Source: Deltaproteobacteria bacterium
Lineage (GTDB): Bacteria > Myxococcota > Myxococcia > SLRQ01
Direction: 5' to 3'
Assembly: GCA_007128675.1 (NCBI GenBank)
Contig: SKWY01000161.1
Location: forward strand, 1-25,815
Length of the DNA: 25,815 nucleotides
A program made the position numbers and the translations under genes. Below the pieces are notes generated by a model. The model did not search any database. It worked only from the letters and a program-made list of their open reading frames with translations, and was not told the DNA's origin. Below, one piece after another: positions 3,647 through 17,853 of the stretch (position 1 is the stretch's first letter; each line of letters begins with the position of its first letter).

Positions 3647-5748
3647 TGTCCGAACAACTGAACTACACTATTCCAGAGGCCTGGTTGCTCGTTGGGACCG
3701 CGATTCTAATTGGCTTCTTCCTGCTCCTTGGCTTCGGCCTCATGGTGAAGGCCTTCTACCGGAAGGTAGACCAGGGCAGAGCCCTCATCATAAACAAGCT
3801 GACGGCAGAGCCCACGGTGACGTTCACGGGAGGCCTCGTCCTTCCGATCATCTATCGCGCGGAGTTGATGGACATCTCCTTGAAGACGATCGAGATCGAT
3901 CGTCGGGGCAAGGAGGGCCTGATCTGCCAGGACAACATTCGCGCGGACATCAAGGTGACGTTCTATGTTCGAGTGAACAAGACGAAGGAGGACGTCCTCA
4001 AGGTTGCGCAGGCGGTGGGGTGCGAGCGAGCTTCCGACCAGCGCACTTTGGAAGAACTCTTCGTAGCCAAGTTCTCCGAGGCTCTGAAGACGGTCGGCAA
4101 GCGTCTCGACTTCGAGGACCTCTACCAGAAGCGAGACGACTTCAAGGATGCGATAGTTCGGGTCATTGGACAGGATCTGAACGGGTATCTCCTCGAGGAC
4201 GCGGCCATCGACTATCTAGAGCAGACGCCGGTGGAGCTGCTCGATCCAAAGAACATCCTCGATGCCCAGGGCATCAGGAAGATAACGGAGCTGACGACTC
4301 GGCAGAACATCTTCACCAACGACTTCCGTCAGACAGAGCGTAAGGAGATAAAGCGGCAGGATGTGGAAGCCGAAAAGGCCGTCCTCGATCTAGAGCGTGA
4401 CGAGGCCGACGCGCGCGCCACGCAGGCCCGTGAGGTCGATACGATGCGTGCGAGGGAGGAGGCGGAGACCCGCAAGATTCAAGCGGAGGAGCAGGCTCGT
4501 TCGGAGTCGGCGAGAATCAAGGCCGCCGAGCAGGTAGCGATCGAGAACGAGAACAAGATGCGACAGATCGAGATTGCCGCCAAGAATCGGGAGCGCGCCG
4601 TGCTTGTCGAGGGCGAGAAGGTTGAACGTGATCGCGCTTTGGAGCAGGTCGCTCGCGAGCGGCAGGTCGATCTCGAGACGATAGAGAAGGACAAGGCGAT
4701 AGAGGTCGAGAAGAAGGAGATCGCCGATGTGGTGCGCGAGCGCGTGGCCGTCGAGAAGAAGGTCGCCGAGGAGGAGGAGAGAATCAAGGATGTTCGCGCC
4801 ATCGAGGAGGCCAGACGTATGAAGGCCGTGCAGATCACGACAGCCGAAGCGGAGGCCGAGGAGAAGCTGGTCAAGGACATAAAGGAGGCCGAGGCCGCCG
4901 AGGAGGCGGCGAAGTTCAGGGCCCGGGAGCGGCTCGTTCTGGCTGATGCCGAGCTAGAGGCATCGGAGAGGGAGGCACAGGCCAAGATTCGGCTAGCCGA
5001 AGGTGTTCAGGCCGAGAGAGCCGCGCCTGGTCTCGGGAACGTCAGGGTTCAGGAAGCGCAGGCCGTGGCAATAGAAAAGCAGGGCCGCGCCGAGGCGATG
5101 GTCGTTCAGGAAAAGGGTCTTGCCGAGGTGCGGGTCCGCGAGCAAGACGCCCAGGCAGTGGAGAAGCTCGGGAAGGCCGAGGCCGTCTCGATTCAGGCAA
5201 GATTGGAGGGAGAGTCGGCGGGTCTTGCGAAGAAGGCGGAGGCGATGAAGCTTCTGGACGACTCCACTCGTCACCACGAGGAGTTCCGGATCCGGTTGGA
5301 GCAAGAAAAGGAGGTCAAGCTCACGCACATAGAGGCGAGGCGGCAGATCGCCGAGCAGCAAGCCATCGCGATGCAGAAGGCCTTCCAGACAGCCAAGATC
5401 AACATAGTCGGCGGTGATGGAGACTTCTTCGACAGGTTCATCAACGCGGTGGGCGTGGGACAGTCGCTCGACGCGGCCATCGAGCAGTCGAGTACGCTGC
5501 AGACAGGGCTTGGCGACTATCTTACCGGTGACCGCAGCTTGCCGGAGGACCTGCGTGAGATCCTCTCCAACCCCGCCTTCTCGAGTCAGGCTCTCCAGAA
5601 CACCTCCGTATCGGCTTTTCTATTGCATTTGATGCGGCGAGCCGATGATGAGACGAAGGAAGAGATAGCTCAGCTGCTGAAGCAGGCGGAGAAGCTGAAG
5701 GCCACAGTCGAGCCGGCGAAGGGCGGCGGCACCAAGAAGTCGCAGTAG
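3646..5748 (+). CDS. Flotillin-like SPFH/band-7 protein (FloT/YqiK family)
   Basis: 700 aa. It has an N-terminal TM helix. The SPFH domain covers roughly aa 55-230. A long E/A/K/R coiled coil follows with flotillin EA repeats (KAEAVSIQARLEGESAGLAKKAEAMKLL). The C-terminal region (AFQTAKINIVGG...) resembles the FloT tail. Confidence 0.9.
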   Translation: MSEQLNYTIPEAWLLVGTAILIGFFLLLGFGLMVKAFYRKVDQGRALIINKLTAEPTVTFTGGLVLPIIYRAELMDISLKTIEIDRRGKEGLICQDNIRADIKVTFYVRVNKTKEDVLKVAQAVGCERASDQRTLEELFVAKFSEALKTVGKRLDFEDLYQKRDDFKDAIVRVIGQDLNGYLLEDAAIDYLEQTPVELLDPKNILDAQGIRKITELTTRQNIFTNDFRQTERKEIKRQDVEAEKAVLDLERDEADARATQAREVDTMRAREEAETRKIQAEEQARSESARIKAAEQVAIENENKMRQIEIAAKNRERAVLVEGEKVERDRALEQVARERQVDLETIEKDKAIEVEKKEIADVVRERVAVEKKVAEEEERIKDVRAIEEARRMKAVQITTAEAEAEEKLVKDIKEAEAAEEAAKFRARERLVLADAELEASEREAQAKIRLAEGVQAERAAPGLGNVRVQEAQAVAIEKQGRAEAMVVQEKGLAEVRVREQDAQAVEKLGKAEAVSIQARLEGESAGLAKKAEAMKLLDDSTRHHEEFRIRLEQEKEVKLTHIEARRQIAEQQAIAMQKAFQTAKINIVGGDGDFFDRFINAVGVGQSLDAAIEQSSTLQTGLGDYLTGDRSLPEDLREILSNPAFSSQALQNTSVSAFLLHLMRRADDETKEEIAQLLKQAEKLKATVEPAKGGGTKKSQ

Positions 5749-5760
5749 AGGGCTACGTCA

Positions 5761-7848
5761 ATGGCGGCCCCACAAGCCAAGGATACAGAGGCGCTCGACG
5801 AGGCGGCGCTCGAAGGCGGAAGCTACGAAGTCTTGCGCCAGCGCCTCCTCGAGCAGGCGCGGATTTTGGCGGAAAAAGCTGCTCGCCTGAACGAGCGACG
5901 TCAGGAGAGCTTTGGTGGAGTGGAGCTATCCATCATCGGCAACGAGCGCATCCGCACGGAGAACAACTGTGTGCCCCAGGACATGGTGCAGGTGCAGGGC
6001 ATGCTCCTGTTTGGCTACAACGTCTTCGTGGGGCTGCGCAAGGAGACGCGTGTCTCCGACGTCTTCGCATTGCACCGGTTCGAGCACGAAGAGGAAGGCT
6101 TCGACCTCTCCGCCGTGCCGCTAGAGGAGGCTCCTGCTAGTCTCTTGCGTCACGAAAGGTTCGTTCGAGAGTTCGAGGAACTCTACCGCTACTACTCGAG
6201 CACTCGCCTTTCGCTTCTTCGTCGCACCGAGTCCAGGCTGCTTGCCGTTTTTCGTGTCGGAGCCGGCGAGAAGGATGTGAGGGTCTTCAGGTGGGAACTC
6301 GATGGCGCTGGAGAAGCCACCTACATCGATAATCGAGGCGAGAGGGAGCACGTCTTCCCTAGATCTCACGACTTCGAGTGGATCGCCACTGGCAGGGAAG
6401 ACCAAGTCAGGGGCCCGCATCCACATGTATCCATCTTGGAGGAGGTCTTCGTCGAGGCGGTCGGTGGCGACCTGACAGTAAAGGTCGAGAACAACACCGA
6501 GGATGGACAGGGAATATACGCCGAGCCGGTGGACGAACCAAGCCAGGGACTGGACGACGGTCAGATCGAGTACGCCAAGGTCGGCAGCCTGATACTGATT
6601 CGGGTGTTGCCGTTTCGCGAGAGCGAATGGCGTCACCTCGTCTTCAATACTCGCACCAAGCAGGTAGCGCGCATAGATGCGATTGGCCAGGCCTGTGTCT
6701 CCTTGCCCGAGGATCAGGGGATCATCTTTCCGGGGGGCTACTACCTGCAGACCGGGGACTATCGCCTCTTCGATACGGACACGAGCGGTCTTCGCTTCAA
6801 GAGAGCTATTCGTTCTCCCAATGGCGAGGATGTTCTCTACGTCTTCCACCGGGACAGCGACGGGCATTTTCTCCTCTTTCCGTACAACATTGTGCGCCAG
6901 GAAGTTGCCAGCCACATCAACTGTCACGGTTACAGCCTCTTCGATGACGGCAAGATGGTCGTATTTCGGGCCGTGAGCGACGAGCCGACGCGGGTGCACC
7001 CCGTCCAGATATGGCAGACGCCTTTCAGCTCCGCCGAGCATGCCGCGGGGCACGCGGTCGATGCTTCCTTCCTAGGACGAATCGGCAACTCCGATCTGGT
7101 GAGGGGCGTCTCCGATTGCTTCACCATCTGCAGGATGGCGCGGTCGGAAGAGGCGGGCCGGGAGACCTACGAGGATTTGGTCGGCCAGGTTCAGCGGGTG
7201 ATCGATGCATACTACTGGCTGTCGGACTCCGAGGTGGAGGACATAGCCTCCAACCTCGCGGAGCTGAAGGCGACCTCCGAGCTGATATTGGACGAGTACG
7301 AAAAGGTCGTCGCGATGAGAGCCAGGGCAAAGGAGGCTCTCTTTACCGCACAGGAGAGAGCCCGGGCCTTGCTGCGAGAGATTCGCCCCGACACATGGGA
7401 GCGAGTCGACGACTTCTTGAAGGCCATGACGGGGCTGCGCACCGAGCGAGGCCACGTAATCACCGTCAAGGATGTTCGCTACGTGGACGTGGCCAGCCTT
7501 GATTCCCTGGAGGAGGAGATTGCCGCCGCTTTCGATGAGGTCAGCGAGGCTGCTGTCTCCTTCTTGCTGAACAAGGACGCATTCGCTTCGATGCGGGAGG
7601 ATCTGGACAGGCTCTCCAGCAGAATCGCCGAGGCGAGGGGCTCCGTGGAGCTGACCGAGCTATTCGAGCGTCTCGACGAGCTTGCCGATTGTCTCACGGT
7701 GCTCGGCGAGACGGTAGGTGGACTCGAGGTCGGCGATCCGACGGCGCGTACAGATTCTTCAAGACGTCTCGGAGGTCTTCTCTCTTCTGAACCGTGTTCG
7801 AGCAACGCTCGCAAACCGCCGCCAGGATCTGCTCGGGCGCGAGGGTAG
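5761..7848 (+). CDS. Large conserved hypothetical protein with an N-terminal coiled coil, a beta-rich middle and a C-terminal helical region. The last ~130 nt are probably not genuinely coding (see the frame transition with the next ORF).
   Basis: 695-aa ORF. A GAGGG SD lies 8 nt upstream of ATG 5761, which is 12 nt after the flotillin stop. GC3 is high through ~7720, then third-codon positions turn A/T-rich up to the stop at 7848. I recognise no domain. Confidence 0.55.
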   Translation: MAAPQAKDTEALDEAALEGGSYEVLRQRLLEQARILAEKAARLNERRQESFGGVELSIIGNERIRTENNCVPQDMVQVQGMLLFGYNVFVGLRKETRVSDVFALHRFEHEEEGFDLSAVPLEEAPASLLRHERFVREFEELYRYYSSTRLSLLRRTESRLLAVFRVGAGEKDVRVFRWELDGAGEATYIDNRGEREHVFPRSHDFEWIATGREDQVRGPHPHVSILEEVFVEAVGGDLTVKVENNTEDGQGIYAEPVDEPSQGLDDGQIEYAKVGSLILIRVLPFRESEWRHLVFNTRTKQVARIDAIGQACVSLPEDQGIIFPGGYYLQTGDYRLFDTDTSGLRFKRAIRSPNGEDVLYVFHRDSDGHFLLFPYNIVRQEVASHINCHGYSLFDDGKMVVFRAVSDEPTRVHPVQIWQTPFSSAEHAAGHAVDASFLGRIGNSDLVRGVSDCFTICRMARSEEAGRETYEDLVGQVQRVIDAYYWLSDSEVEDIASNLAELKATSELILDEYEKVVAMRARAKEALFTAQERARALLREIRPDTWERVDDFLKAMTGLRTERGHVITVKDVRYVDVASLDSLEEEIAAAFDEVSEAAVSFLLNKDAFASMREDLDRLSSRIAEARGSVELTELFERLDELADCLTVLGETVGGLEVGDPTARTDSSRRLGGLLSSEPCSSNARKPPPGSARARG

Positions 7849-10800
7849 GGTCGAGTTCGGGGCCCAGTTCGCTCTGTTCAGTCAGACCGTTGAGAGCGCT
7901 CTAGCCCTATGTGACGAGCCTGACAAGTGCGACGAGCAGCTCTCGCGGGTGCTGGTGACCTTGGAGGAGCTGGAGAGCCGCTTTTCCGACTTCGATGAGT
8001 TCGCGGAGCAGCTGACGGAGAAGCGCGAAGAGGTCTATGAGGCGTTCACGGGCCGAAAGCAGCAGCTACGAGAGGGGCGGCAGCGCCGAGCCGCGAATCT
8101 TGTCGTGGCGGCTGACAGGATATTCCAAGGGATTGAGCGGCGAGCCGGAACCTTCAAGGATCAGGATGAGCTGAACGGCTTCTTCGCTTCGGATCCGATG
8201 GTTCATCGCTTGAGAGGGCTCGTGGGGCAGCTGCGTGAGCTCGATGATCCGGTAAAGGCGGACGAGATCGAGGGACGCTTGCAGTCTGCCAGACAGGATG
8301 CGCTGCGAACGCAGCGCGATAGGGCGGATCTCTTCGAGGAAGGGCAGGCCGTCGTTCGTCTGGGAAGACACAGGTTCAATGTTTCCACCGAGCAGGTCGA
8401 GTTGACCTTGGTGCCTAGAGGCGAGGAGATGATGCTCCATCTCTCGGGCACGGACTACTACGAGAAGCTCGAGGATCCCGAGCTGGAGGCCGCGCGGCAT
8501 CTTTGGCATCAGCAGTATGTATCCGAGTCCGAGGATGTCTATCGGGCCGAGTATCTTGCGGCCCAGATTCTGTTCACGGCCGAGGCGGCGCGGGAAGGGC
8601 TTTCCCTCGCCGGGTTGCACGAGGCCTACCGACAGGACGGCGGCCTGCTCGAGCTCACCCGTCAGTTCGCGGCCGATAGGTACGAGGAAGGCTACGAGCG
8701 AGGTGTTCACGACTCGGACGCCGCGCGAATTCTGGAGAAGCTTCTCGCAATGCGAGAGACGGTGGGCCTGCTTCGGTTCCCGCCGGAGCCCAGGGCGCTG
8801 GCATGTCTGTTCTGGGCGCTACACGAGGACGAGAACGAGCTGGGCAGCATCGCCCGAAGAGCCGGTAGCCTCGGTCGTCTCCGCAATGCCTTCTCACAGG
8901 AGGTGGGCCTCGCCGCGCTCGGTGATGAGCTCGGCCGCAGGATCGATGCATTCCTGGAGAAGGCGGGGATAGAGCACGGCCGCGGTGACGTGCTCCTCGC
9001 GGGACGTTACCTCGCCGAGGAGCTGACTCGCGAGAATCCTCGCTTCGTGGTGGGCCAGGACGCGGTGGTGTTGCAAGAGGCTTTGCTTCGCCACCTCGAA
9101 CAGCACGGGATGCGGACGGCTTTCGAGCAGGACCTCGACGCCCTTCGCCCGTCGCCTCGTCAGGTGCTAGAGCTATTGGTGGCTTGGCTCGAGGGGTTCG
9201 TGCAGAGCCGAGAAGGAAAGAAACACGCGGATAGGAGGGAGTCCATCCTGGCGGCGGCGGTGCTGTTCCTGACCGAGGGGCGTCTGGAAAGAGAGGTCTC
9301 GAGCGCGCGCACTCGGATGGAAATCGAAGGCCTTCTGGGTCAGCATCCGAGAGTGAGTTCGGGAAGGATCGAGGTCAGGCTCGAGGCCTTCTTGGAGCGT
9401 CTAGCTGAATTCATCGAGACGAGGGCTCCAGAGTACAGGGCATACCGAAAGGAGTCCGCCCTCATCCTCGAGCGTGAGCGCCAGCGCTTGAGGCTCGATG
9501 AGCTCAAGCCCAAGGTGCTCACCTCCTTCGTTAGGAACCAGCTCATAAACGACGTCTACCTTCCGCTGATTGGCGGCAATCTCGCCAAGCAGCTTGGCGC
9601 CGCCGGCGCTGATAGGCGGACGGACCAAAGCGGTCTTCTGCTTCTGATCTCGCCGCCCGGTTACGGCAAGACGACGCTGATGGAGTATGTCGCGAGCACT
9701 CTCGGGCTCATATTCGTCAAGGTCAACGGTCCTTCTCTTGGGCATGCCGTGACCTCCCTCGATCCGGCGGAGGCGCCCAACGCCACGGCTCGCCAAGAGG
9801 TGGAGAAGATCAATCTCGCTCTCGAGATGAGCAATAACGTCATGTTGTACCTGGACGATATTCAGCACACCCACTCCGAACTCTTGCAGAAGTTCATAAG
9901 CCTATGTGACGCGCAGCGGCGTGTCGAAGGTGTCTGGAAGGGGCGAACGCGGACATACGACATGCGCGGCAAGCGTTTCGCGGTGGTCATGGCTGGAAAC
10001 CCATATACGGAGGCGGGCGAGCGCTTCCAGCTTCCCGACATGCTCGCCAATCGAGCGGATACCTACAACCTCGGCGATATCCTGGAAGGAAAGGATCAGC
10101 TCTTTGCGCAAAGCTACATCGAGAACGCGCTCACATCGAACCCGGTGCTGAGGCCCTTGTCCGGAAGGGAGCCACGTGATGTGCGACTCTTCATTCGGAT
10201 GGCCAGGGGCGAGGAGATTCCGACCAGCGATCTCTCTCACAACTACTCGGCGGCCGAGATCGAGGAGATCCTCGCGGTTCTACGGCATCTGACGAAGGTC
10301 CAAGCGGTCTTACTCGAGGTGAACGCCCAGTACATTCGTTCGGCCAGTCAGGACGACAGGTATCGCACCGAGCCTCCATTCAAGCTGCAGGGCTCATACA
10401 GAAACATGGCCCGCATCGCGGAAAGAGTCGTCCCGGCCATGACGCCCGAGGAGGTCGAGCGATTGATAGACGATCACTACCTCGGAGAGTCCCAGACCTT
10501 GACCACGGGAGCGGAGCAGAATCTGTTGAAGCTCGCCAAGATGCGCGACCGAGTGAGCGAGGAGCAGGCCGAGCGCTGGGAGGAGATCAAGAGGGGCTTT
10601 GCTCGTCATCAGATCATGGGCTCCAGCGAGGAGGATCCGACCGTTCGAGCCCTCGGGCAGTTGGCCGCTCTCACCGAGCAGGTCAGTGCGCTACGCGATG
10701 TGGTGGCCTCCGCGGCAAAGGCCGGTCGCGTCGAGGCAAGGCAATCAAAGGATGTCGAGAAGAGCGAGAAGGCCGAAGCTCGTAAGAGGAGCCTCGAGGA

Positions 10801-11530
10801 GAGCGCCGAGCGCGAAGCCAAGGAGAGGCTCGAGGCCATGCGGATGCAGTCCGAGCTTCACCTAGAGGCATCCACAAAGGCAGCGCTACTGCAGGGAGAG
10901 CAGCAGGCCAAGGCCTTTGGAGAGGCGGCACGGGTTCAGGCGCACGCTCAGATGGAGGCGGCCAGGCTCCAGGTAGAGGCCAAGATGGAAGCGGCCAAGA
11001 CTCACGCTCGGGCTCAGGCGCAGATCCAATCGAGGCTCGCCGAGGTGCTCGTTCCGAGGCTCGAGTCTCTGGAGAAGGCATTGGCCAAGGTGGCCGAGTC
11101 CGCCGCCAAGGCATCGAAGGCCGCCGCCAAATCCAGCCCATCGGCGACAGGCGAGGCTCACTCTGCTGCAGCGGTTGATCTATCGCCCCTGATCGAAAAG
11201 CTCTCGGACACGCTCGAGGCCCTGGCCGACCGAAAGGTGGAGCTTCAGATTCCTCCGGATGCTTTCATGGGCCCGATGATGCCGCCGCTCGCGCTGTCAC
11301 AAGGTTCCATCGAATCGGGTTCGGCGCCGGGTGAGGGCGAGGAAGGCCAGCCGTTGGGTCCACCTGGTTATTCCCATCAGCTCCGGCTCATTCAGGATGC
11401 GCTCATGCCACTTCGCCAGTTGTCTCGTCGCCAGATCCGAGACGGCGAGGGGAAGATGAGTGCGATGCAGGTTTGGCGACAAGTGAACGAGGCCTTGCAG
11501 GTGGTCCAGGCGGCCGCATTTTGGAAATAG
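7718..11530 (+). CDS. Very large protein with a central MoxR-like AAA_5 ATPase domain and a C-terminal flotillin-like EA-repeat coiled coil
   Basis: 1270-aa ORF. Walker A is LLISPPGYGKTTL (~9645-9676). Walker B is VMLYLDDIQH (~9840-9869). There is a helix-2-insert-like segment. Sensor-1 is FAVVMAGNPYTE (~9984-10013). An Arg-finger-like LANRADTYNLGD follows. The C-terminus has AEA-rich repeats. The GTG start at 7718 lies immediately after an in-frame TAG, with no convincing SD. Confidence 0.75.
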   Translation: MDSRSAIRRRVQILQDVSEVFSLLNRVRATLANRRQDLLGREGRVEFGAQFALFSQTVESALALCDEPDKCDEQLSRVLVTLEELESRFSDFDEFAEQLTEKREEVYEAFTGRKQQLREGRQRRAANLVVAADRIFQGIERRAGTFKDQDELNGFFASDPMVHRLRGLVGQLRELDDPVKADEIEGRLQSARQDALRTQRDRADLFEEGQAVVRLGRHRFNVSTEQVELTLVPRGEEMMLHLSGTDYYEKLEDPELEAARHLWHQQYVSESEDVYRAEYLAAQILFTAEAAREGLSLAGLHEAYRQDGGLLELTRQFAADRYEEGYERGVHDSDAARILEKLLAMRETVGLLRFPPEPRALACLFWALHEDENELGSIARRAGSLGRLRNAFSQEVGLAALGDELGRRIDAFLEKAGIEHGRGDVLLAGRYLAEELTRENPRFVVGQDAVVLQEALLRHLEQHGMRTAFEQDLDALRPSPRQVLELLVAWLEGFVQSREGKKHADRRESILAAAVLFLTEGRLEREVSSARTRMEIEGLLGQHPRVSSGRIEVRLEAFLERLAEFIETRAPEYRAYRKESALILERERQRLRLDELKPKVLTSFVRNQLINDVYLPLIGGNLAKQLGAAGADRRTDQSGLLLLISPPGYGKTTLMEYVASTLGLIFVKVNGPSLGHAVTSLDPAEAPNATARQEVEKINLALEMSNNVMLYLDDIQHTHSELLQKFISLCDAQRRVEGVWKGRTRTYDMRGKRFAVVMAGNPYTEAGERFQLPDMLANRADTYNLGDILEGKDQLFAQSYIENALTSNPVLRPLSGREPRDVRLFIRMARGEEIPTSDLSHNYSAAEIEEILAVLRHLTKVQAVLLEVNAQYIRSASQDDRYRTEPPFKLQGSYRNMARIAERVVPAMTPEEVERLIDDHYLGESQTLTTGAEQNLLKLAKMRDRVSEEQAERWEEIKRGFARHQIMGSSEEDPTVRALGQLAALTEQVSALRDVVASAAKAGRVEARQSKDVEKSEKAEARKRSLEESAEREAKERLEAMRMQSELHLEASTKAALLQGEQQAKAFGEAARVQAHAQMEAARLQVEAKMEAAKTHARAQAQIQSRLAEVLVPRLESLEKALAKVAESAAKASKAAAKSSPSATGEAHSAAAVDLSPLIEKLSDTLEALADRKVELQIPPDAFMGPMMPPLALSQGSIESGSAPGEGEEGQPLGPPGYSHQLRLIQDALMPLRQLSRRQIRDGEGKMSAMQVWRQVNEALQVVQAAAFWK
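9600..10150 (+). other. AAA_5 (MoxR/dynein-related) ATPase core within CDS 7718..11530 (approximate bounds)
   Basis: The motif order is Walker A, Walker B (hhhhDD), an insertion, then a sensor-1 containing the NP dipeptide, then a conserved Arg. This is the order typical of the MoxR/AAA_5 clade. Confidence 0.65.
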
Positions 11531-12417: not shown

Positions 12418-12537
12418 TGACCGGGCTGATCGATGTGTCTGATGGAGAGGGCGGGTGATTGGCGGACCGCCAGAGGCGAGGACCTGCTAGGACACCGAGG
12501 TTTTTATCGAAGTCACGCCAACGGAGGTGCTATACCG

Positions 12538-13536
12538 ATGAGCATGAAATCGCGAGCCGCTTTGACACTGTGCTTTCTCATGATCGCTGTTGCTCTGTTT
12601 TCCTGCTCGAGGCCTGACGCCGTCACTAGGCCCGACGAGCTTCCCGAGGCGGAGGCTGCCCCGGCGGAACCGGAGGCACAGCCCGAGGCAGCCCCCGAGA
12701 CCGACGAGATAGCTCTGGGGCGAGAGCTGATCGACGCGGGAGCCGAGCCGAGAGAGCTTCTCTCCTACGATCTCGAACCTCACGTGTCTCGCTTCTGGTA
12801 TCGCATGCGTGTCGAGCTCACGGTGGATGACGAATCACCCGATGTTCCCGAGATGGGTTTTCTCTATCTCTGGTCGGTCACCCCATGCGAGACGAGCGAG
12901 GGTCACGCCAGGGTGGAGGTAGAGATTGAAGATGTGGAGATAGATACTTCGGCTCTCGCGGAAACGATGACTCCCGAGATGTTGGAATTCATGGAGGAGC
13001 AGTTTCGAGAGATGGTCGGTCCAGTAGGCGTCATCGAGCTTGATGAGGAAAGAAACGTGGTCTCTGTCGAGATGACGGCGCAGGCTCGCAGGGACTCACT
13101 CATAGATGTCGCCGAGATGATCAATCAGCTCGCCCATCAAGTGCCCACGCCCCCACTCGAGCCGGTAGGTGTTGGAGCCAGGTGGTCGATGACACTGGAG
13201 ACTGTTCAGCAGAGCATGCCCGTGGTCATGAAGGTCGACGAGACCTTGGTCGAGCGCGAGGGAAGCCGGGTTCGTATCGACCAAGAGTACTCGTTGGTTG
13301 GAACGGCTGATGGCGCCGTGGTGTCTGGCGCCGCTCTTCTGGAAGACTACCAGATGAACGGATCCGGCCAGATCTCGATGGATATGAAGACCCTGTCCTT
13401 GACCAGCGAGAGCCACATGAGAATGGAGAACCGAATGCGGATGCGTCCAGCAAGCGGAGTGGGGGGGCAGCCCGAGCCTGGCGATTTTGTGGATGTAATA
13501 ATGCTGCTCGAGATAGTGATGATACCGGTGGAGTGA
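12538..13536 (+). CDS. Hypothetical lipoprotein with an acidic Pro/Glu/Ala-rich N-terminal linker
   Basis: The track ORF begins at 12433. The in-frame ATG at 12538 is preceded by GGAGGTG (12523-12529). It opens a signal peptide MSMKSRAALTLCFLMIAVALFSC with a lipobox-like LFSC. Confidence 0.6.
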   Translation: MSMKSRAALTLCFLMIAVALFSCSRPDAVTRPDELPEAEAAPAEPEAQPEAAPETDEIALGRELIDAGAEPRELLSYDLEPHVSRFWYRMRVELTVDDESPDVPEMGFLYLWSVTPCETSEGHARVEVEIEDVEIDTSALAETMTPEMLEFMEEQFREMVGPVGVIELDEERNVVSVEMTAQARRDSLIDVAEMINQLAHQVPTPPLEPVGVGARWSMTLETVQQSMPVVMKVDETLVEREGSRVRIDQEYSLVGTADGAVVSGAALLEDYQMNGSGQISMDMKTLSLTSESHMRMENRMRMRPASGVGGQPEPGDFVDVIMLLEIVMIPVE

Positions 13537-13730
13537 TTGGGGCTGCCGATATCGCCGTCTTGCTTCGCGAGGCCCCGTCGTCATGGGGAGGACCGCGGGG
13601 GATCTGGATGAATCTTGGATGGGCTGCGTTATTGCCGGGCCCTCGAGCGCGAGCGGGCCGCCTGCAAATCGGTCCCGATAGGCGCGAATACGTATGCCGC
13701 CTCGCCCTCGGGAACTAGTAGTCTCGTCGT

Positions 13731-13738
13731 TGTCGACA
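13731..13738. promoter_or_regulatory. TGTCGACA perfect palindrome 28 nt upstream of the blaI-like start. Candidate autoregulatory operator overlapping a -35-like TTGTCG/TCGACA.
   Basis: Seen directly at 13731-13738. An extended -10-like TGcTAACTT lies at 13751-13759. The ATG is at 13766. Confidence 0.3.
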
Positions 13739-13765
13739 TGGGATCGATTGTGCTAACTTCTTGGC

Positions 13766-14242
13766 ATGTCTGATGGAAAAGAGAGCCCCTCAACGGCCGG
13801 TTTGAGCCGCCGGACAAGACAGATCCTGGAGGTAGTCTACCGGCTCGAGCGCGCTACGGCGGCGGAGATTCAGCAAGCTCTTCCCGATCCGCCTAGCTAC
13901 TCCGCGGTTAGAACGCACCTTCGGATTCTGGAGGAGAGGGGCCATTTGACCCATGTCTCCGAGGGGCCTCGATATGTCTACACTCCCAAGGTTCCTCGCG
14001 AACGAGCCTCTCGCGGAGCCATTCGCCACTTGGTGGATACCTTTTTCGAGGGCTCCGTTGCTCACGCGGTGGCCGCGCTCTTGGACACCTCGAGCTCGAA
14101 GCTATCGCCCGAGGACGTGGAGCATCTGAAGGTTCTCATCGAGGATGCGAGAAAGGAATCTGCTTCACGGTCCCAAGATGCCGCCGCGCGACCTGCGAGA
14201 AGCCGCCGCGGCGCATCGAAACGTAAGGGGGAAGGCAAGTGA
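13766..14242 (+). CDS. BlaI/MecI/CopY-family (penicillinase-repressor-type) winged-helix transcriptional repressor
   Basis: 158 aa. The N-terminal wHTH pattern is RQILEVVYRLERATAAEIQQAL...SAVRTHLRILEERGHL. A C-terminal dimerisation helix follows. An M56 BlaR1-like peptidase gene overlaps its stop (GTGA at 14239-14242). Confidence 0.8.
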   Translation: MSDGKESPSTAGLSRRTRQILEVVYRLERATAAEIQQALPDPPSYSAVRTHLRILEERGHLTHVSEGPRYVYTPKVPRERASRGAIRHLVDTFFEGSVAHAVAALLDTSSSKLSPEDVEHLKVLIEDARKESASRSQDAAARPARSRRGASKRKGEGK

Positions 14243-15444
14243 GTCTATTGCTCGAGTCCACCATTAGGTGGTCGGTGCTTCTCCTGCTCGTCTTTGCGTT
14301 TTGTTTTTTTTGGCGAGGTTCCGCGGCCGTAAGGCACCTCGCCTGGACCTTTGGCGCCGTAACCGGTCTGCTCTTTGTCGTGATCGGGTTGCTTGGACCG
14401 ACCTGGACCCTGACTCTGCCATGGTTGCAGGCTGCCGCGGCCGATCCCGTCGTGACCACCAAGGCTTCCTCGTCCTCGTCGGGGGCCCCGGTCGCTGCCG
14501 CATTCTTTTGGCCGAACCTTCTTCTCCTAGGCTGGCTGCTGGGATCGCTCTTGCTGATGGGTTGGACCTTGCTCGGGGTCGCCCTCTCCGCGCTTCTCTT
14601 GCGGGAGGCGACCGAAGTCCGAAGGCCCCTTCCCGATGTCGCGGAAGGCATTTGCGTGCGCTCGAGCAGCCGGGTCTCAGGCCCGGTCACAGTGGGGTTG
14701 TTGCGACCTGTGATAGTAGTGCCAAAACGCGCCTTGTCATGGACGCCGGTTCGTTGGGATGCGGCGCTGGCTCATGAGGCGGCCCATGTGCGGCGCAAGG
14801 ATGTCCTGATACGGTGCCTTGGCGCGCTCGTCCGGGCCGTTCATTGGCCAAACCCCTTGGCATGGGTGATGCTCTCGCGCATTCGTCACGAGGCCGAGAT
14901 GGCCGCCGACGAGTCGGTCTTGGGCTTGGGTGTAAGGCCGGCCGATTACGCCGAGTTGCTTCTCGAGGAGAACGATTACCTGGGCCGTGGCCTTGGACCG
15001 CTGGTCTCCGTCTCCATGAATCGAGGAGATCTCTCCCGTCGAATCAAATGGGTGCTTGGAAGATCGCGGCGGGCTCCGCCGCCCCGTGGATACGTTGCCA
15101 TTGGCGCCCTGTTGGCAATGTTTTTCGCAGTTCCCGCGGCGATCGTCACCTTCGTACCTCCCGAAGCCGAGCCGGCCGAAACAGCCGGCGCGGCAGGTGA
15201 TGGCGCCGATTCATCTGCGGTCGCGTCGGCTCCACGGACCATTCACGCCCGCGTGGGAGATCTTATTTCGGAGCGCTTCGATGGCATCTCCAGGATTGCC
15301 ATATCCAACCCCTCGAGCCTCGACGTTCGGCATCCAGTGGATGGCGAGATCGTAATGGAGGCGCTGGCCCCCGGTGATTCCAGCGTCCTGATTTGGCTTG
15401 GGGGGCAGGAGCCGGCCGAGAGGCTGATCGTCGAGGTCGAGTAG
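14239..15444 (+). CDS. BlaR1/MecR1-like peptidase M56 signal transducer with a noncanonical C-terminal secretin/pilus-N-like sensor domain
   Basis: 401 aa. It has N-terminal TM helices. The zinc motif is HEAAH (AHEAAHVRRKD) with a downstream EMAADES Glu. A final TM helix comes next. Then there is a ~100-aa extracellular tail (RIAISNPSSLDVRHPVDGEIVMEALAPGDSSVLIWL) instead of a penicillin-binding domain. Confidence 0.8.
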   Translation: MSLLLESTIRWSVLLLLVFAFCFFWRGSAAVRHLAWTFGAVTGLLFVVIGLLGPTWTLTLPWLQAAAADPVVTTKASSSSSGAPVAAAFFWPNLLLLGWLLGSLLLMGWTLLGVALSALLLREATEVRRPLPDVAEGICVRSSSRVSGPVTVGLLRPVIVVPKRALSWTPVRWDAALAHEAAHVRRKDVLIRCLGALVRAVHWPNPLAWVMLSRIRHEAEMAADESVLGLGVRPADYAELLLEENDYLGRGLGPLVSVSMNRGDLSRRIKWVLGRSRRAPPPRGYVAIGALLAMFFAVPAAIVTFVPPEAEPAETAGAAGDGADSSAVASAPRTIHARVGDLISERFDGISRIAISNPSSLDVRHPVDGEIVMEALAPGDSSVLIWLGGQEPAERLIVEVE

Positions 15445-15458
15445 GAGGACACATCTAC

Positions 15459-15818
15459 TCATCCATCCGTCACGGTCACGTGAACGGACACCTTGGAGTC
15501 GTCGGGAAGCCATATTAGGACGCTGGCCTCGCCGGAGGACAAGCCCTTCAGGAGCACGTGCCCCGAAGAGTCCACACGAGTGTCCAATGTGTCCGGATTG
15601 CTGATGGCTACTCGGGTCACGGGCCCGTAATCGAGGCTCACCTCTTCACCCACCACGAGCACCACGGTATCCATGGCCTCTCTATCATGCCGCTCATCAG
15701 CGCCGGCGCTGTGACCAACGAGGCCGGCGAGCAGAAGGCTGCTCACCAAGATGATCAGGCGGATGGCGCCTGGCCGTAATACTCGCAAACTCTCTCTCTT
15801 GCCTTTTCGGTCGTTCAT
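15459..15818 (-). CDS. Small secreted protein carrying a pilus-formation/secretin N-terminal-like beta domain (paralogous to the BlaR1-like C-terminal domain)
   Basis: 119 aa. The signal peptide is RLIILVSSLLLAGLVGHSAGA. The domain is VSLDYGPVTRVAISNPDTLDTRVDSSGHVLLKGLSSGEASVLIWLPDDSKVSVHVTV. The gene is convergent with the M56 gene and separated from it by 14 bp. Confidence 0.6.
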   Translation of the reverse strand: MNDRKGKRESLRVLRPGAIRLIILVSSLLLAGLVGHSAGADERHDREAMDTVVLVVGEEVSLDYGPVTRVAISNPDTLDTRVDSSGHVLLKGLSSGEASVLIWLPDDSKVSVHVTVTDG

Positions 15819-15890: not shown

Positions 15891-15926
15891 GCTGCTAATA
15901 ATTTAGCAGCAGGCTAAAATTTTAGC
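15891..15926. promoter_or_regulatory. Tandem palindromes in an AT-rich divergent intergenic region. Candidate operator for a dimeric regulator.
   Basis: GCTGCTAA-taat-TTAGCAGC (15891-15910; 8-bp perfect arms, 4-bp spacer) is followed by GCTAAAATTTTAGC (15913-15926; perfect 14-bp palindrome). The two share a GCTAA/TTAGC core. The surrounding 450 bp is markedly AT-rich relative to the window. Confidence 0.35.
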
Positions 15927-16211
15927 AAGAGCAATCCTTGAAAAGCTCTGGCGCTTCCAGCATTCCGAAAGCTTGGCGCGACCTAGTCGGCGAGGCGCGG
16001 CGATCCCTTGGGCCCGTGTCCTCGGGCCGGCCTAGCCCCCGCCTCGCCTCGAAAAACTGAGGGCAGCCTCCAAGCGACTGACCTTCGAGTCACAGCCGCT
16101 AACAAGAGAATAAGGTTAGGAAAGAGAGCCCCTTCCTCTAAGCCCCCGTGTTTACGGGAATGAAGGCCGGCGGAGCCGGCGAAATGCCCAGGCGAACCAA
16201 CTAGGCCCGGC

Positions 16212-16269: not shown

Positions 16270-17853
16270 ATGAACGGTGTGCGAACGAATTCCAAGATCG
16301 GGCTCGTGGCCGTGATGGCCATGGCCCTTTGTATCGGCTGCTTGGTAGAAGGCGGTGGAGTAAGAAATGGGCACGACGAGACGCATCGCGAGGACTCTTC
16401 TCCTTCCTATGACACTGGCGATGGAAACGTAGGAAGCAATATCGGCTTTGGAGGGGAGCAGGATTTTGCTTATTTCAGGACGCAGCTGGACAATGGCGTG
16501 GTGCCCGACCCGGATGTGCTCCAGGCCTCCGGCTTCTTTGCCGAGCACCACACATCCTTGCCTCCGCCTGAATGCGGCCAGACTCTCTGCCTTCATCCTA
16601 TGCTAGGGGTGGCCGAGGACCCCCTCGGGGGTGAGCCTCGTACCGTCTTGCAGATCGGCCTGAACACTCCAATCGAGCTCAACCCAGACGAGCGGCCAGA
16701 TCTCGATCTCTCCTTGTCGATAGACGTCTCTGGATCGATGAGCGCCGACAACCGCATCGGATATGTGCGAAGCGGCCTGGAGCTCATGCTGGACGAACTC
16801 TTCGACGATGATCGAGTTGCGATCATCATCTACAGCTCCGATGCGAGCGTGCTGCTCCCGATGACGCGCGTCGGTGATTCTCGAGAGGAGATCCGCGAGC
16901 ACATCCAGTCCTTGCAGGCCGGGGGGATGACGGCCCTGTACGCTGGTCTAGAGCTTGCCTATCAGGAGTCCTTGGAGCATTTCGATCCCGAGCGTGAAGC
17001 GCGCGTCATAATGCTTAGCGATGGCCAGGCCAACGTCGGTCCTAGCGCGGACGATGAGATTCTCTCCATGAGCCGGGAGTACAACGACGAAGGCATCGGG
17101 CTGACGACGATCGGTCTTGGAAGCAGCTTCAATGTGGACCTGATGCGAGGGCTGGCGGAACAGGGCGAGGGCAACTTCTACTACGTCGGCTCCGCGGCGG
17201 ACGTGGAGGATGTCTTCACGGTCGAGGTGCATAGCTTCACGGTGCCCGTGGCGCGGGACGTGCTCATCGAGGTCGAGGAAGGTTTCCGTTACACCTTCCA
17301 GCAATCCTGGGGGAGCCCGCATTGGGAGGATCTGGAGGACGGCGGGACGCTCGCTCTCCCCTCGGTCTTCGCGGCGTGGCGAACTTCTCACGATGACACC
17401 ACGGACTCTGGCGGCCGGCGAGGCGGTGGTTCTGCCTTGCTGTTGGAGCTTGCGCCCCGGGACGACGTGCCGGAGGATGTATCCGAGGCCGAGGTTGCGA
17501 GGATAACCTTGTCCTACGAGGATCCCGAGCTTGGCGAATACGTGGAGGAGACGACAGAGGTCGTCTATCCCTATCACCCAACATTCCTGATGGCGGGAGG
17601 CTACTTCAGCTCCCATGGGCAGGGAGTGATCATGAAGAGCTTCGCCATGCTGCATGCCTACCTGGCCCTCAAGGAGGGATGCCGCCTCTTCCACGAAGGC
17701 GAGGCCGAGGAGGCAATCGAGCTATTGAGCGCTGTCCAGGAGCCCCTCTCCGACCTCGAGTCGCGGCTGAACGATGGAGAAGGCGACGAGGATATCGAGC
17801 GGGATATCGAGCTCATCGAGCAGCTTCGCGAGGTTATTGAAGCGCACCTATAG
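16270..17853 (+). CDS. YfbK-like von Willebrand factor A (vWA/MIDAS) domain secreted/lipoprotein
   Basis: 527 aa. An AGGAG lies 9 nt upstream of ATG 16270. It has a signal peptide with Cys residues (LCIGC). A YfbK-type N-domain follows (DFAYFRTQLDNGVVPDPDVL). The vWA domain has the MIDAS motif DVSGSMS and LSDGQANVG, and then an acidic helical C-terminus. Confidence 0.85.
   Translation: MNGVRTNSKIGLVAVMAMALCIGCLVEGGGVRNGHDETHREDSSPSYDTGDGNVGSNIGFGGEQDFAYFRTQLDNGVVPDPDVLQASGFFAEHHTSLPPPECGQTLCLHPMLGVAEDPLGGEPRTVLQIGLNTPIELNPDERPDLDLSLSIDVSGSMSADNRIGYVRSGLELMLDELFDDDRVAIIIYSSDASVLLPMTRVGDSREEIREHIQSLQAGGMTALYAGLELAYQESLEHFDPEREARVIMLSDGQANVGPSADDEILSMSREYNDEGIGLTTIGLGSSFNVDLMRGLAEQGEGNFYYVGSAADVEDVFTVEVHSFTVPVARDVLIEVEEGFRYTFQQSWGSPHWEDLEDGGTLALPSVFAAWRTSHDDTTDSGGRRGGGSALLLELAPRDDVPEDVSEAEVARITLSYEDPELGEYVEETTEVVYPYHPTFLMAGGYFSSHGQGVIMKSFAMLHAYLALKEGCRLFHEGEAEEAIELLSAVQEPLSDLESRLNDGEGDEDIERDIELIEQLREVIEAHL

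Follow-up and report, generated by a model that had tools for sequence, protein, structure and literature searches.

What does a BlaR1-type protease sense when its extracytoplasmic domain is not the penicillin-binding domain of the canonical sensors, and which gene does its repressor control? This question is raised by three adjacent genes of an uncultured deltaproteobacterium (contig SKWY01000161.1, assembly GCA_007128675.1), for which the window, i.e., the whole stretch of DNA that was analysed, is a complete contig of 25,815 nucleotides that public collections include. The genes encode a BlaI-like repressor, an M56 membrane protease whose C-terminal tail is a small β-sandwich domain of the PF13629 type, and, on the opposite strand, a predicted secreted protein that is a free paralogue of this tail. 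The tethered and the free domain recur side by side at divergent loci in three distantly related, uncultured bacteria, and the small gene is preceded by a palindromic operator of a kind that is concentrated at the starts of BlaI genes. The three genes may form a self-contained BlaI/BlaR1-type envelope signalling module that is under negative feedback by a free copy of its own sensor domain. Taken as a whole, this statement is evenly balanced between being right and being wrong; the regulatory wiring merits more confidence than that, and the feedback itself merits less.

All three open reading frames (ORFs) were confirmed at the coordinates given by an earlier annotation of the same DNA, here called the original prediction. 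The repressor gene (13766-14242, forward strand) encodes a winged-helix protein of the BlaI/MecI/CopY family with 158 residues, which matches PF03965 with an E value of 4.3e-25 over profile positions 2-114 of 115. The protease gene (14239-15444, forward strand) encodes an M56 (BlaR1-type) membrane zinc protease of 401 residues (PF05569, E = 1.9e-27). Its GTG start codon overlaps the blaI stop codon by four nucleotides (GTGA), an overlap also found on a related contig, L062, and the order of repressor followed by protease is shared with the loci L001-L003. The third gene (15459-15818, reverse strand) encodes a secreted paralogue of 119 residues with a single PF13629 domain (35.4 bits, E = 8.5e-9), and its stop codon faces that of the protease gene across a gap of 14 bp (15445-15458), just as the original prediction had reported.

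The zinc site of the M56 protein is intact, with H179-E-A-A-H183 followed by E220-x-x-x-D224, and residues H179, E180, H183, E220, and D224 are invariant across the alignment of M56 relatives. The spacing of E220 and D224 equals that of E242 and D246 in Staphylococcus aureus BlaR1, which are the zinc-ligand glutamate and the salt-bridge aspartate, respectively (PMC9834060). On a simple hydropathy scale, peaks occur at residues 3-52 (two helices), 83-121, and 288-306, and basic residues flank the protease loop. This pattern fits the BlaR1 plan, in which the protease loop is cytoplasmic and the C-terminus extracytoplasmic. Transmembrane helices TM1-TM3 are predicted to lie within residues 3-121, followed by the cytoplasmic protease domain, TM4 at residues 288-306, and an extracytoplasmic linker and tail at residues 307-401. 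A single-sequence AlphaFold model of the protein was poor, with a pLDDT (predicted local distance difference test) of 47.

A Pfam profile search found no match to PF00905 in the M56 protein, which is thus without a transpeptidase-like sensor domain. The NCBIfam models for BlaR1/MecR1 score the protein at just 15-57 bits, while their cut-offs range from 400 to 1200. Together, these two results indicate a non-canonical BlaIR system and not a β-lactam sensor. By every feature that can be tested in its sequence, bar the canonical sensor domain, the module is a member of the BlaIR family. A role in anti-phage defence was dropped, as a PADLOC search returned no match for the M56 protein or the small protein.

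The sensor domain occupies residues 335-401 of the M56 protein (15241-15441, forward strand) and is a PF13629-type domain of about 70 residues. The original prediction expected both the tail and the small protein to match this family. The small protein does so, its score lying above the curated cut-off of 23 bits, whereas residues 349-400 of the tail reach 22.0 bits and fall marginally under it. However, a profile built from 248 PF13629-type domain copies scores the tail at 62 bits (E = 1.5e-17) and the small protein at 82 bits, and the tail of the orthologue on L062 (P0026) clears the PF13629 cut-off with 67 bits. Tail and small protein are 39% identical over 66 residues (BLASTP E = 4e-12). 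The Pfam matches and this identity bear out the predicted pairing of a BlaI/M56 switch carrying a PF13629 extracytoplasmic tail with a free, exported paralogue, and they place both segments in one family, not in unrelated folds.

The β-sandwich of the small protein spans residues 50-117 (nucleotides 15468-15671). Given 24 aligned single-domain homologues, AlphaFold predicts this region to form seven β-strands (residues 50-55, 59-62, 69-72, 78-82, 88-92, 96-103, and 109-117) at a pLDDT of 96-98. Foldseek matches the model to the N-terminal domains (NTDs) of TrwF/VirB9 with a root-mean-square deviation of 2.2-2.3 over 74 columns, to Big_2-type immunoglobulin (Ig)-like domains, and to the N-domain of a Tad-type secretin (9wfd_A, 32% identity). 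In a profile search of Protein Data Bank sequences, the match falls on residues 19-96 of RcpA-type secretins (8jvb, 8odn). By these models and matches, the shared domain is a VirB9-NTD-like seven-strand β-sandwich, the N-domain of the Tad secretins RcpA and CpaC; for the tail the assignment follows from the sequence family, the fold being modelled for the small protein only. The RcpA N-domain has been described as VirB9-like and is not resolved in the cryo-electron microscopy map of RcpA (Tassinari et al., PMC10499894).

The original prediction had called the domain "secretin-N". The family intended, PF13629, holds, but the domain is not the ring-building Secretin_N/N0-N1 domain, as a profile search of the window proteins found no match to PF03958 or PF07660 at E values up to 1. 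The secretin C-domain PF00263 is present in neither the tail protein nor the small protein, and no Tad genes lie within the window; hence, neither of the two proteins is a secretin.

The small ORF is, to judge from its coding features and relatives, a real gene encoding a predicted secreted protein. A Shine-Dalgarno (SD)-like GGGAGAG lies 8 nucleotides ahead of its ATG, and its GC content by codon position is 0.65/0.43/0.72, with a third-position value (GC3) that resembles that of the neighbouring genes. The signal peptide (residues 1-40) has a basic N-terminus, a hydrophobic core at residues 17-35, and a cleavage site A38-G-A40 ahead of D41, and a short acidic and histidine-containing linker separates it from the PF13629 domain. 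Homologues (P0091 and P0083) occupy the syntenic position on two other contigs, L062 and L063, and the ORF is thus no shadow ORF, an outcome that the original prediction had allowed for.

How rare is this combination of a tethered and a free domain? A two-copy domain profile was run exhaustively against 1.84 billion representative proteins. The 158 matches are mostly secreted proteins with one to five tandem copies, and the few sensors among them are Ser/Thr kinases with an N-terminal zf-HC2 motif, TPR proteins, and three M56 clusters with PF13629 tails (the window protein, P0026, and P0106). The exhaustive HMMER search was needed: a word-indexed search with the small protein recovered the query alone, and the nearest M56 relative found by word-indexed search (36% identity) carries a tail of another type. 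The nearest M56 relatives in species-representative genomes are 31-41% identical and come from Acidobacteriota, Gemmatimonadota, Myxococcota, and similar metagenome-assembled genomes (MAGs). Among 58 other M56 loci of such genomes, the domain occurs in 0 of 58 tails and in 0 of 58 neighbourhoods within 8 kb, and a metagenome scan with the tail alignment gave no match.

The recurrence in other genomes for which the original prediction suggested looking was found on L062 and L063. On L062, a BlaI gene is followed by a gene for an M56 protein that is about 46-47% identical to that of the window and has two PF13629 domains in its tail (P0026), and by a convergent gene for a PF13629 protein of 137 residues. 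On L063, the gene for a PF13629 protein of 113 residues (P0083) converges, with zero gap, on the 3′ end of a tailed gene. The latter is a fragment that covers the last part of one domain and, after a linker, a second one, which is 45% identical to the window tail and closes with ...LIVEVE-stop as in the window. Between loci, identity amounts to 70% for BlaI (L062), 47% for M56, 46% for the tail, and 36-43% for the small protein, and the outer flanking genes differ among the three. Comparison of the contigs indicates that the convergent arrangement of a tailed sensor and a free copy is kept in three divergent loci.

This recurrence bears on the simplest alternative, that the small gene is a coincidental neighbour encoding a Tad/Cpa pilus accessory protein (CpaI-like) or a generic periplasmic Ig-like protein beside a BlaIR pair. 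Free PF13629 proteins are frequent and turn up in a wide range of unrelated settings (those of two others, P0103 and P0032, have no consistent link to sensors), and CpaI is a free protein of the same fold encoded in Tad loci (PMC13170226). However, neither the window nor L062 or L063 contains Tad/Cpa genes. The convergent arrangement has persisted at 36-47% identity despite differing flanks, and each of the three small genes has the BlaI-type twin operator described below. A chance neighbourhood is very improbable.

By sequence comparison, the single tail domain of the window is the orthologue of domain 2, with which the two-domain tails on L062 and L063 end. Its best reciprocal match is domain 2 of P0026 (62.8 bits, 44% identity), and the tail ending VL(I/V)W-GG-(D/E)P...(I/F)VE(V/I)(E/D)-stop is common to the three loci. 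The window small protein is nearest to domain 1 of the P0026 tail (61.6 bits, versus 32.7 bits for domain 2). Domain fission, in which the small protein would be the detached domain 1 of a two-domain ancestor, was rejected because L062 and L063 retain domain 1 plus the free gene.

The paralogous 3′ coding ends of the two convergent genes of the window form an inverted repeat (15356-15550), the arms of which (15356-15399 and 15507-15550) are 44 nucleotides long and 75% complementary. A read-through RNA covering 15346-15560 is predicted to fold at -103.8 kcal/mol (z = -4.9). L063 has a counterpart of 29 nucleotides between the small gene and tail domain 1. In L062 the repeat is not conserved; for this reason, the idea that the two genes are separated by a conserved hairpin or terminator in the RNA was rejected, and the repeat is taken as a by-product of paralogy; local gene conversion or a bidirectional stop could be alternatives.

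Related sensors show further variations. L064 (4728-7311) harbors, in a row, an extracytoplasmic function (ECF)-sigma-like gene, a gene for a secreted two-PF13629 protein of 185 residues, and a gene for a zf-HC2/Ser-Thr kinase that has a PF13629 domain at its C-terminus. Identity between the free and the tethered copy is 43%. The same theme of a sensor with a free paralogue appears here on another signalling scaffold. The closest M56 relatives (P0174, P0007, and P0003) have tails with a partial Secretin domain (PF00263, in a protein of 792 residues), Secretin_N (PF03958), and SecDF_P1_head. This M56 clade seems to recruit secretin-type periplasmic modules repeatedly as sensors, and the repeated uptake of PF13629, Secretin_N, and Secretin modules hints at surveillance of secretin or pilus machines.

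Which gene, then, does the repressor control? The palindrome GCTAA-N4-TTAGC, scored as a box with at most one mismatch and having the extended form (T)GCTAA-N4-TTAGC(A), supplies an answer that was missing from the original prediction and that turns a neighbour into a regulon member. A single box with one mismatch, GCTAACTTCTTGGC (13752-13765), abuts the blaI ATG and is a proposed autoregulatory BlaI site; on L062, a single box, GCTAGTATTTTGGC, abuts the blaI ATG at the identical position. A twin box, GCTAATAATTTAGC-agcag-GCTAAAATTTTAGC (15894-15926), lies 76-108 nucleotides upstream of the small-gene ATG and is proposed as the BlaI site that represses the small gene. Both of its boxes are perfect, and their centres are 19 bp apart. 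Twin boxes also precede the small genes of L062 (4482-4514) and L063 (2422-2454; two perfect boxes, 41-73 nucleotides before the gene), and all three read GCTAA-N4-TTAGC-N5-GCTAA-N4-TTAGC with identical 5-nucleotide spacer and order. The whole window holds three boxes against 0.30 expected, all of them at the two promoters of the module, and none of 100 shuffles reaches three.

On L063, the twin box is located in a gap of 138 bp after a co-directional gene and can therefore serve the small gene only. In the window, the promoter side of the small gene is occupied by a gene (16270-17853) for a secreted VWA-domain protein (PF00092, E = 4e-17). This gene was rejected as the target of the twin box, since the boxes lie 344-376 nucleotides from its start and L063 is without any divergent gene; the VWA start has no box nearby. 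On L063, a gene (2-2356) for an α-2-macroglobulin-like protein with a CFEQ thioester motif takes the corresponding place on the promoter side. Both it and the VWA protein are large, extracytoplasmic, binding proteins.

The link of the box to BlaI genes extends beyond these three loci. In 778 kb of loci, 59 of which encode BlaI, 40 of the 49 boxes lie between -100 and +50 of an estimated BlaI N-terminus, the background being 0.011 per 170 bp, and many of the boxes near BlaI starts are paired at 19-21 bp. A blind metagenome scan, for which the twin-box DNA pattern alone served as the query, yielded at least 120 stretches (L069-L188). Among the matches listed, 94 of 120 stretches contain a BlaI-like ORF, 85 of 120 have the box centre between -120 and +20 of the BlaI N-terminus, and 0 of 120 contain a PF13629 gene. 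Because of its concentration at BlaI starts, the box is predicted to serve a large clade of BlaI-like repressors as their cognate operator, and the small gene, which carries a BlaI-type twin operator, is a predicted regulon member and thus the output of the switch. Binding of the repressor to the boxes is what this genomic association suggests.

Among the same listed matches, the twin box is widespread, mostly in soil metagenomes, and eight stretches have a gene of about 1.28 kb between box and blaI, so that the first gene of that operon is probably another conserved target. Two Rubricoccaceae MAGs have a single box (L017 10285-10298, L034 10343-10356) about 85 nucleotides upstream of a gene for a secreted DUF5916/CBM9 protein. 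This gene is directly downstream of the M56 gene, which suggests another output for the same type of switch, and indicates that box-controlled effectors encoded next to M56 are the rule in the clade.

With the small gene as the output, the module could also be read as a plain sensor-effector system without feedback on the sensor. The tail and the secreted protein would bind the same target (e.g., a pilus, secretin, or phage component), the secreted protein would be a protective or assembly factor made on demand, and shut-off would occur only by removal of the target. The operator evidence agrees with this, as does the canonical logic, in which the BlaR1 sensor is related to β-lactamases (PMC9834060), and in L017 and L034 the gene behind the same box codes for a secreted protein that is unrelated. 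However, if the target is shared, the free protein competes with the sensor, which already amounts to feedback. A feedback-free version requires a catalytic or irreversible effector, whereas the small protein is a β-sandwich of 70 residues without an obvious catalytic site, and domains of VirB9-NTD-like fold are protein-protein adaptors that also bind each other (PMC13170226). A module of this kind, entirely free of feedback, is doubtful.

The candidate promoters, which were read by eye, coincide with the boxes. For the blaI-M56 operon (13730-13759, forward strand), a -35 element TTGTCG (13730-13735) and a -10 element TAACTT (13754-13759) are separated by an 18-nucleotide spacer. The -10 element ends 7 nucleotides before the ATG, and there is no SD, in the window (13752-13768) as in L062 (1958-1974); given this short distance, the blaI-M56 mRNA is probably leaderless. 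A TTGAC-type -35 element, a box over the -10 element, a box abutting the start codon, and the lack of an SD are also found together in L014, L027, L047, and L062. For the small gene (15900-15928, reverse strand), the candidate -35 element TTGCTA (15928 to 15923) and -10 element TAAATT (15905 to 15900) are separated by a 17-nucleotide spacer, and the two hexamers fall within the two operator boxes. The layout TTGC(T/C)A-N17-TAAnn(T/A) likewise stands ahead of the small gene in L062 and L063.

This operator layout helps to weigh a third alternative, in which the free domain is a co-receptor that builds the active sensor, either by heteromeric assembly on an M56 dimer or by presenting a ligand as periplasmic binding proteins do for some kinases. 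The feedback would then be positive, and induction would amplify the signal. Such a role would suit the tight, conserved pairing, as well as the gene order on L064, where the free two-domain protein is encoded directly upstream of the kinase sensor and co-directional with the kinase and the sigma-like gene, which is typical of receptor subunits. Moreover, the window tail is one domain short of the two-domain tails of its relatives, and it is the missing domain 1 that the free protein resembles most. However, the small gene is on the opposite strand and has the stronger operator (two perfect boxes versus one imperfect box), so it should be near-silent in the uninduced state, in which a co-receptor would be required. 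On L062 and L063, domain 1 is retained alongside a free protein, and the free copy is thus no simple replacement for it. A co-receptor is unlikely.

Under the preferred reading of negative feedback by the free sensor-domain copy, the BlaI-like repressor would bind one imperfect box over its own -10 element and start codon and two perfect boxes over the -35 and -10 elements of the small gene. The M56 protease would reside in the inner membrane with its zinc site facing the cytoplasm and its one VirB9/RcpA-N-like β-sandwich in the periplasm. A periplasmic protein cue on this tail would activate the protease, the repressor would be cleaved, and the small gene would be derepressed. Induction would cover both the strongly repressed small gene and the weakly repressed blaI-M56 operon. 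In the canonical system, BlaR1 cleaves BlaI directly, and signalling begins once the ligand has dislodged an extracellular loop that otherwise fills the sensor domain (PMC9834060).

As a free copy of the sensor fold, the small protein would share at least part of the binding specificity of the tail. Once exported, it may recognise what the tail recognises, i.e., the same partner or strand, or the tail itself. Excess free protein would quench the sensor, whether it docked on the tail or sequestered the inducing partner. If the free protein were titrated away, the switch would turn on and the free protein would be replaced, such that the module would act as a homeostat for a periplasmic adaptor. 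In structural models, the free RcpA-N-like protein CpaI packs strand-to-sheet on the tethered N-domain of CpaC and receives a β-hairpin from CpaB (PMC13170226). The decoy, anti-sensor, or homotypic role raised in the original prediction is made more plausible by this precedent, together with the synteny in three loci and the BlaI-type operators.

Several points weigh against this reading. The sign of the feedback is a guess. The pairing is known from just three loci, too few for covariation analysis, and the tails of L062 and L063 have two domains versus one in the window, so that the stoichiometry varies between loci. A second M56 lineage with two-PF13629 tails (P0106/P0172 on L002/L003) is without a free paralogue or an adjoining box, and a free copy is thus not an obligatory partner of PF13629 tails. 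The characterised operators of BlaI, MecI, and CopY are TACA/TGTA boxes, from which the window box differs. Finally, a generic sigma-70 scan called none of the promoters that were read by eye.

In its most general form, the hypothesis is that the sensor reads the occupancy of its own β-sandwich tail by the free copy that it controls, as a self-referential homeostat for a periplasmic adaptor, and that this principle may have been adopted independently by M56 proteases (window, L062, and L063) and by anti-sigma-like Ser/Thr kinases (L064). This extension is tentative and may well be wrong.

The remaining surroundings of the module are as follows. Rfam and tRNA scans of the window gave no match. 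Upstream of blaI, a gene at 12433-13536 encodes a protein of 367 residues with a lipoprotein-like start (internal Met 38, ...ALFSC) and no Pfam family; as this protein is not homologous to the product of the gene upstream of blaI on L062, it is not part of the module. Farther upstream (5761-11530) are two very large adjacent ORFs, which as listed overlap at 7718-7848 and have no PADLOC match. One encodes a protein of 695 residues with DUF3686 ("ATPase involved in DNA repair") and DUF7902, and the other an AAA_5/AAA protein of 1270 residues that starts with a DUF7902 fragment. On L062, tandem GAGAAAGGTGCC-like repeats (about 1750-1900 and 4530-4566) flank the three-gene module.

The locus is of interest because sequence alone nominates both a regulated output, by a conserved operator that an independent scan supports, and a candidate ligand or competitor of the sensor, namely the free paralogue. 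The module is among few such cases, and it brings the question of what a non-canonical BlaR senses within reach of straightforward binding and reporter assays. From the motif (T)GCTAA-N4-TTAGC(A), in most cases a pair with 19-bp spacing, regulons can be predicted for a large clade of BlaI-like repressors that is mostly soil-borne, and the fold of the Tad-secretin N-domain is seen to serve as a signalling module. A BlaIR-type switch whose predicted output is a free paralogue of a non-enzymatic sensor domain is a real, rare, and new variety of non-canonical BlaIR signalling.

The module shares with the canonical BlaI/BlaR1 and MecI/MecR1 systems of Staphylococcus and Bacillus the overlapping repressor and M56 genes, the HExxH...ExxxD gluzincin site, and palindromic operators at its own promoter and at that of an adjacent target. 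Its predicted layout would also match theirs, with this site on a loop in the cytoplasm between TM3 and TM4 and the C-terminal sensor on the outer side of the membrane. A further likeness is the evolutionary relation between the sensor domain and the induced protein, as the BlaR1 sensor is a relative of the β-lactamases, the class of proteins that its system induces (PMC9834060). In contrast, the canonical sensor is a penicillin-binding domain of 250 residues, whereas that of the window is a β-sandwich of about 70 residues with neither PF00905 nor SxxK. The canonical operator is of the TACA/TGTA type, and the target in the window is a non-enzymatic secreted domain. The host is uncultured and probably diderm, and the cue is presumably a protein instead of an antibiotic.

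BlaIR-family switches without a β-lactam-binding domain have been studied in Clostridioides difficile (CenIR; 10.64898/2026.04.08.717257) and cyanobacteria (PetRP; PMC7896320). They differ from the window module in having no PF13629 tail and no target paralogous to the sensor domain, and PetP is proposed to sense copper. A survey of M56 proteins counted 254 architectures, of which about 6% have a transpeptidase domain, and PF13629 is not among the common architectures listed there (10.64898/2026.04.08.717257). The Tad secretins RcpA and CpaC, together with CpaI, resemble the window proteins in the PF13629 family, the seven-strand VirB9-NTD-like fold, and the existence of tethered and free forms (PMC10499894, PMC13170226). 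However, the tethered copy of the window is carried by a signalling protease with no Tad genes nearby, and its free copy is under predicted control of the repressor of that protease, whereas CpaI is encoded in the Tad locus and is modelled to bridge the secretin N-domain to CpaB.

In agreement with the original prediction, which knew of no such arrangement, a literature search of partial coverage found no description of an M56 sensor with a PF13629 domain, of a BlaIR system with an output paralogous to a non-enzymatic sensor domain, or of a GCTAA-N4-TTAGC operator. A functional counterpart is offered by CpxP, a small periplasmic protein that is strongly induced by the envelope sensor CpxA and acts back on it, and whose titration by envelope cargo releases the CpxA sensor. 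CpxP is helical and unrelated to the sensor domain of CpxA, and the transmitter is a histidine kinase and not a protease-repressor pair. The CpxP-like logic of the window module is thus a functional analogy, in which the feedback is proposed to be exerted by a copy of the sensor domain itself.

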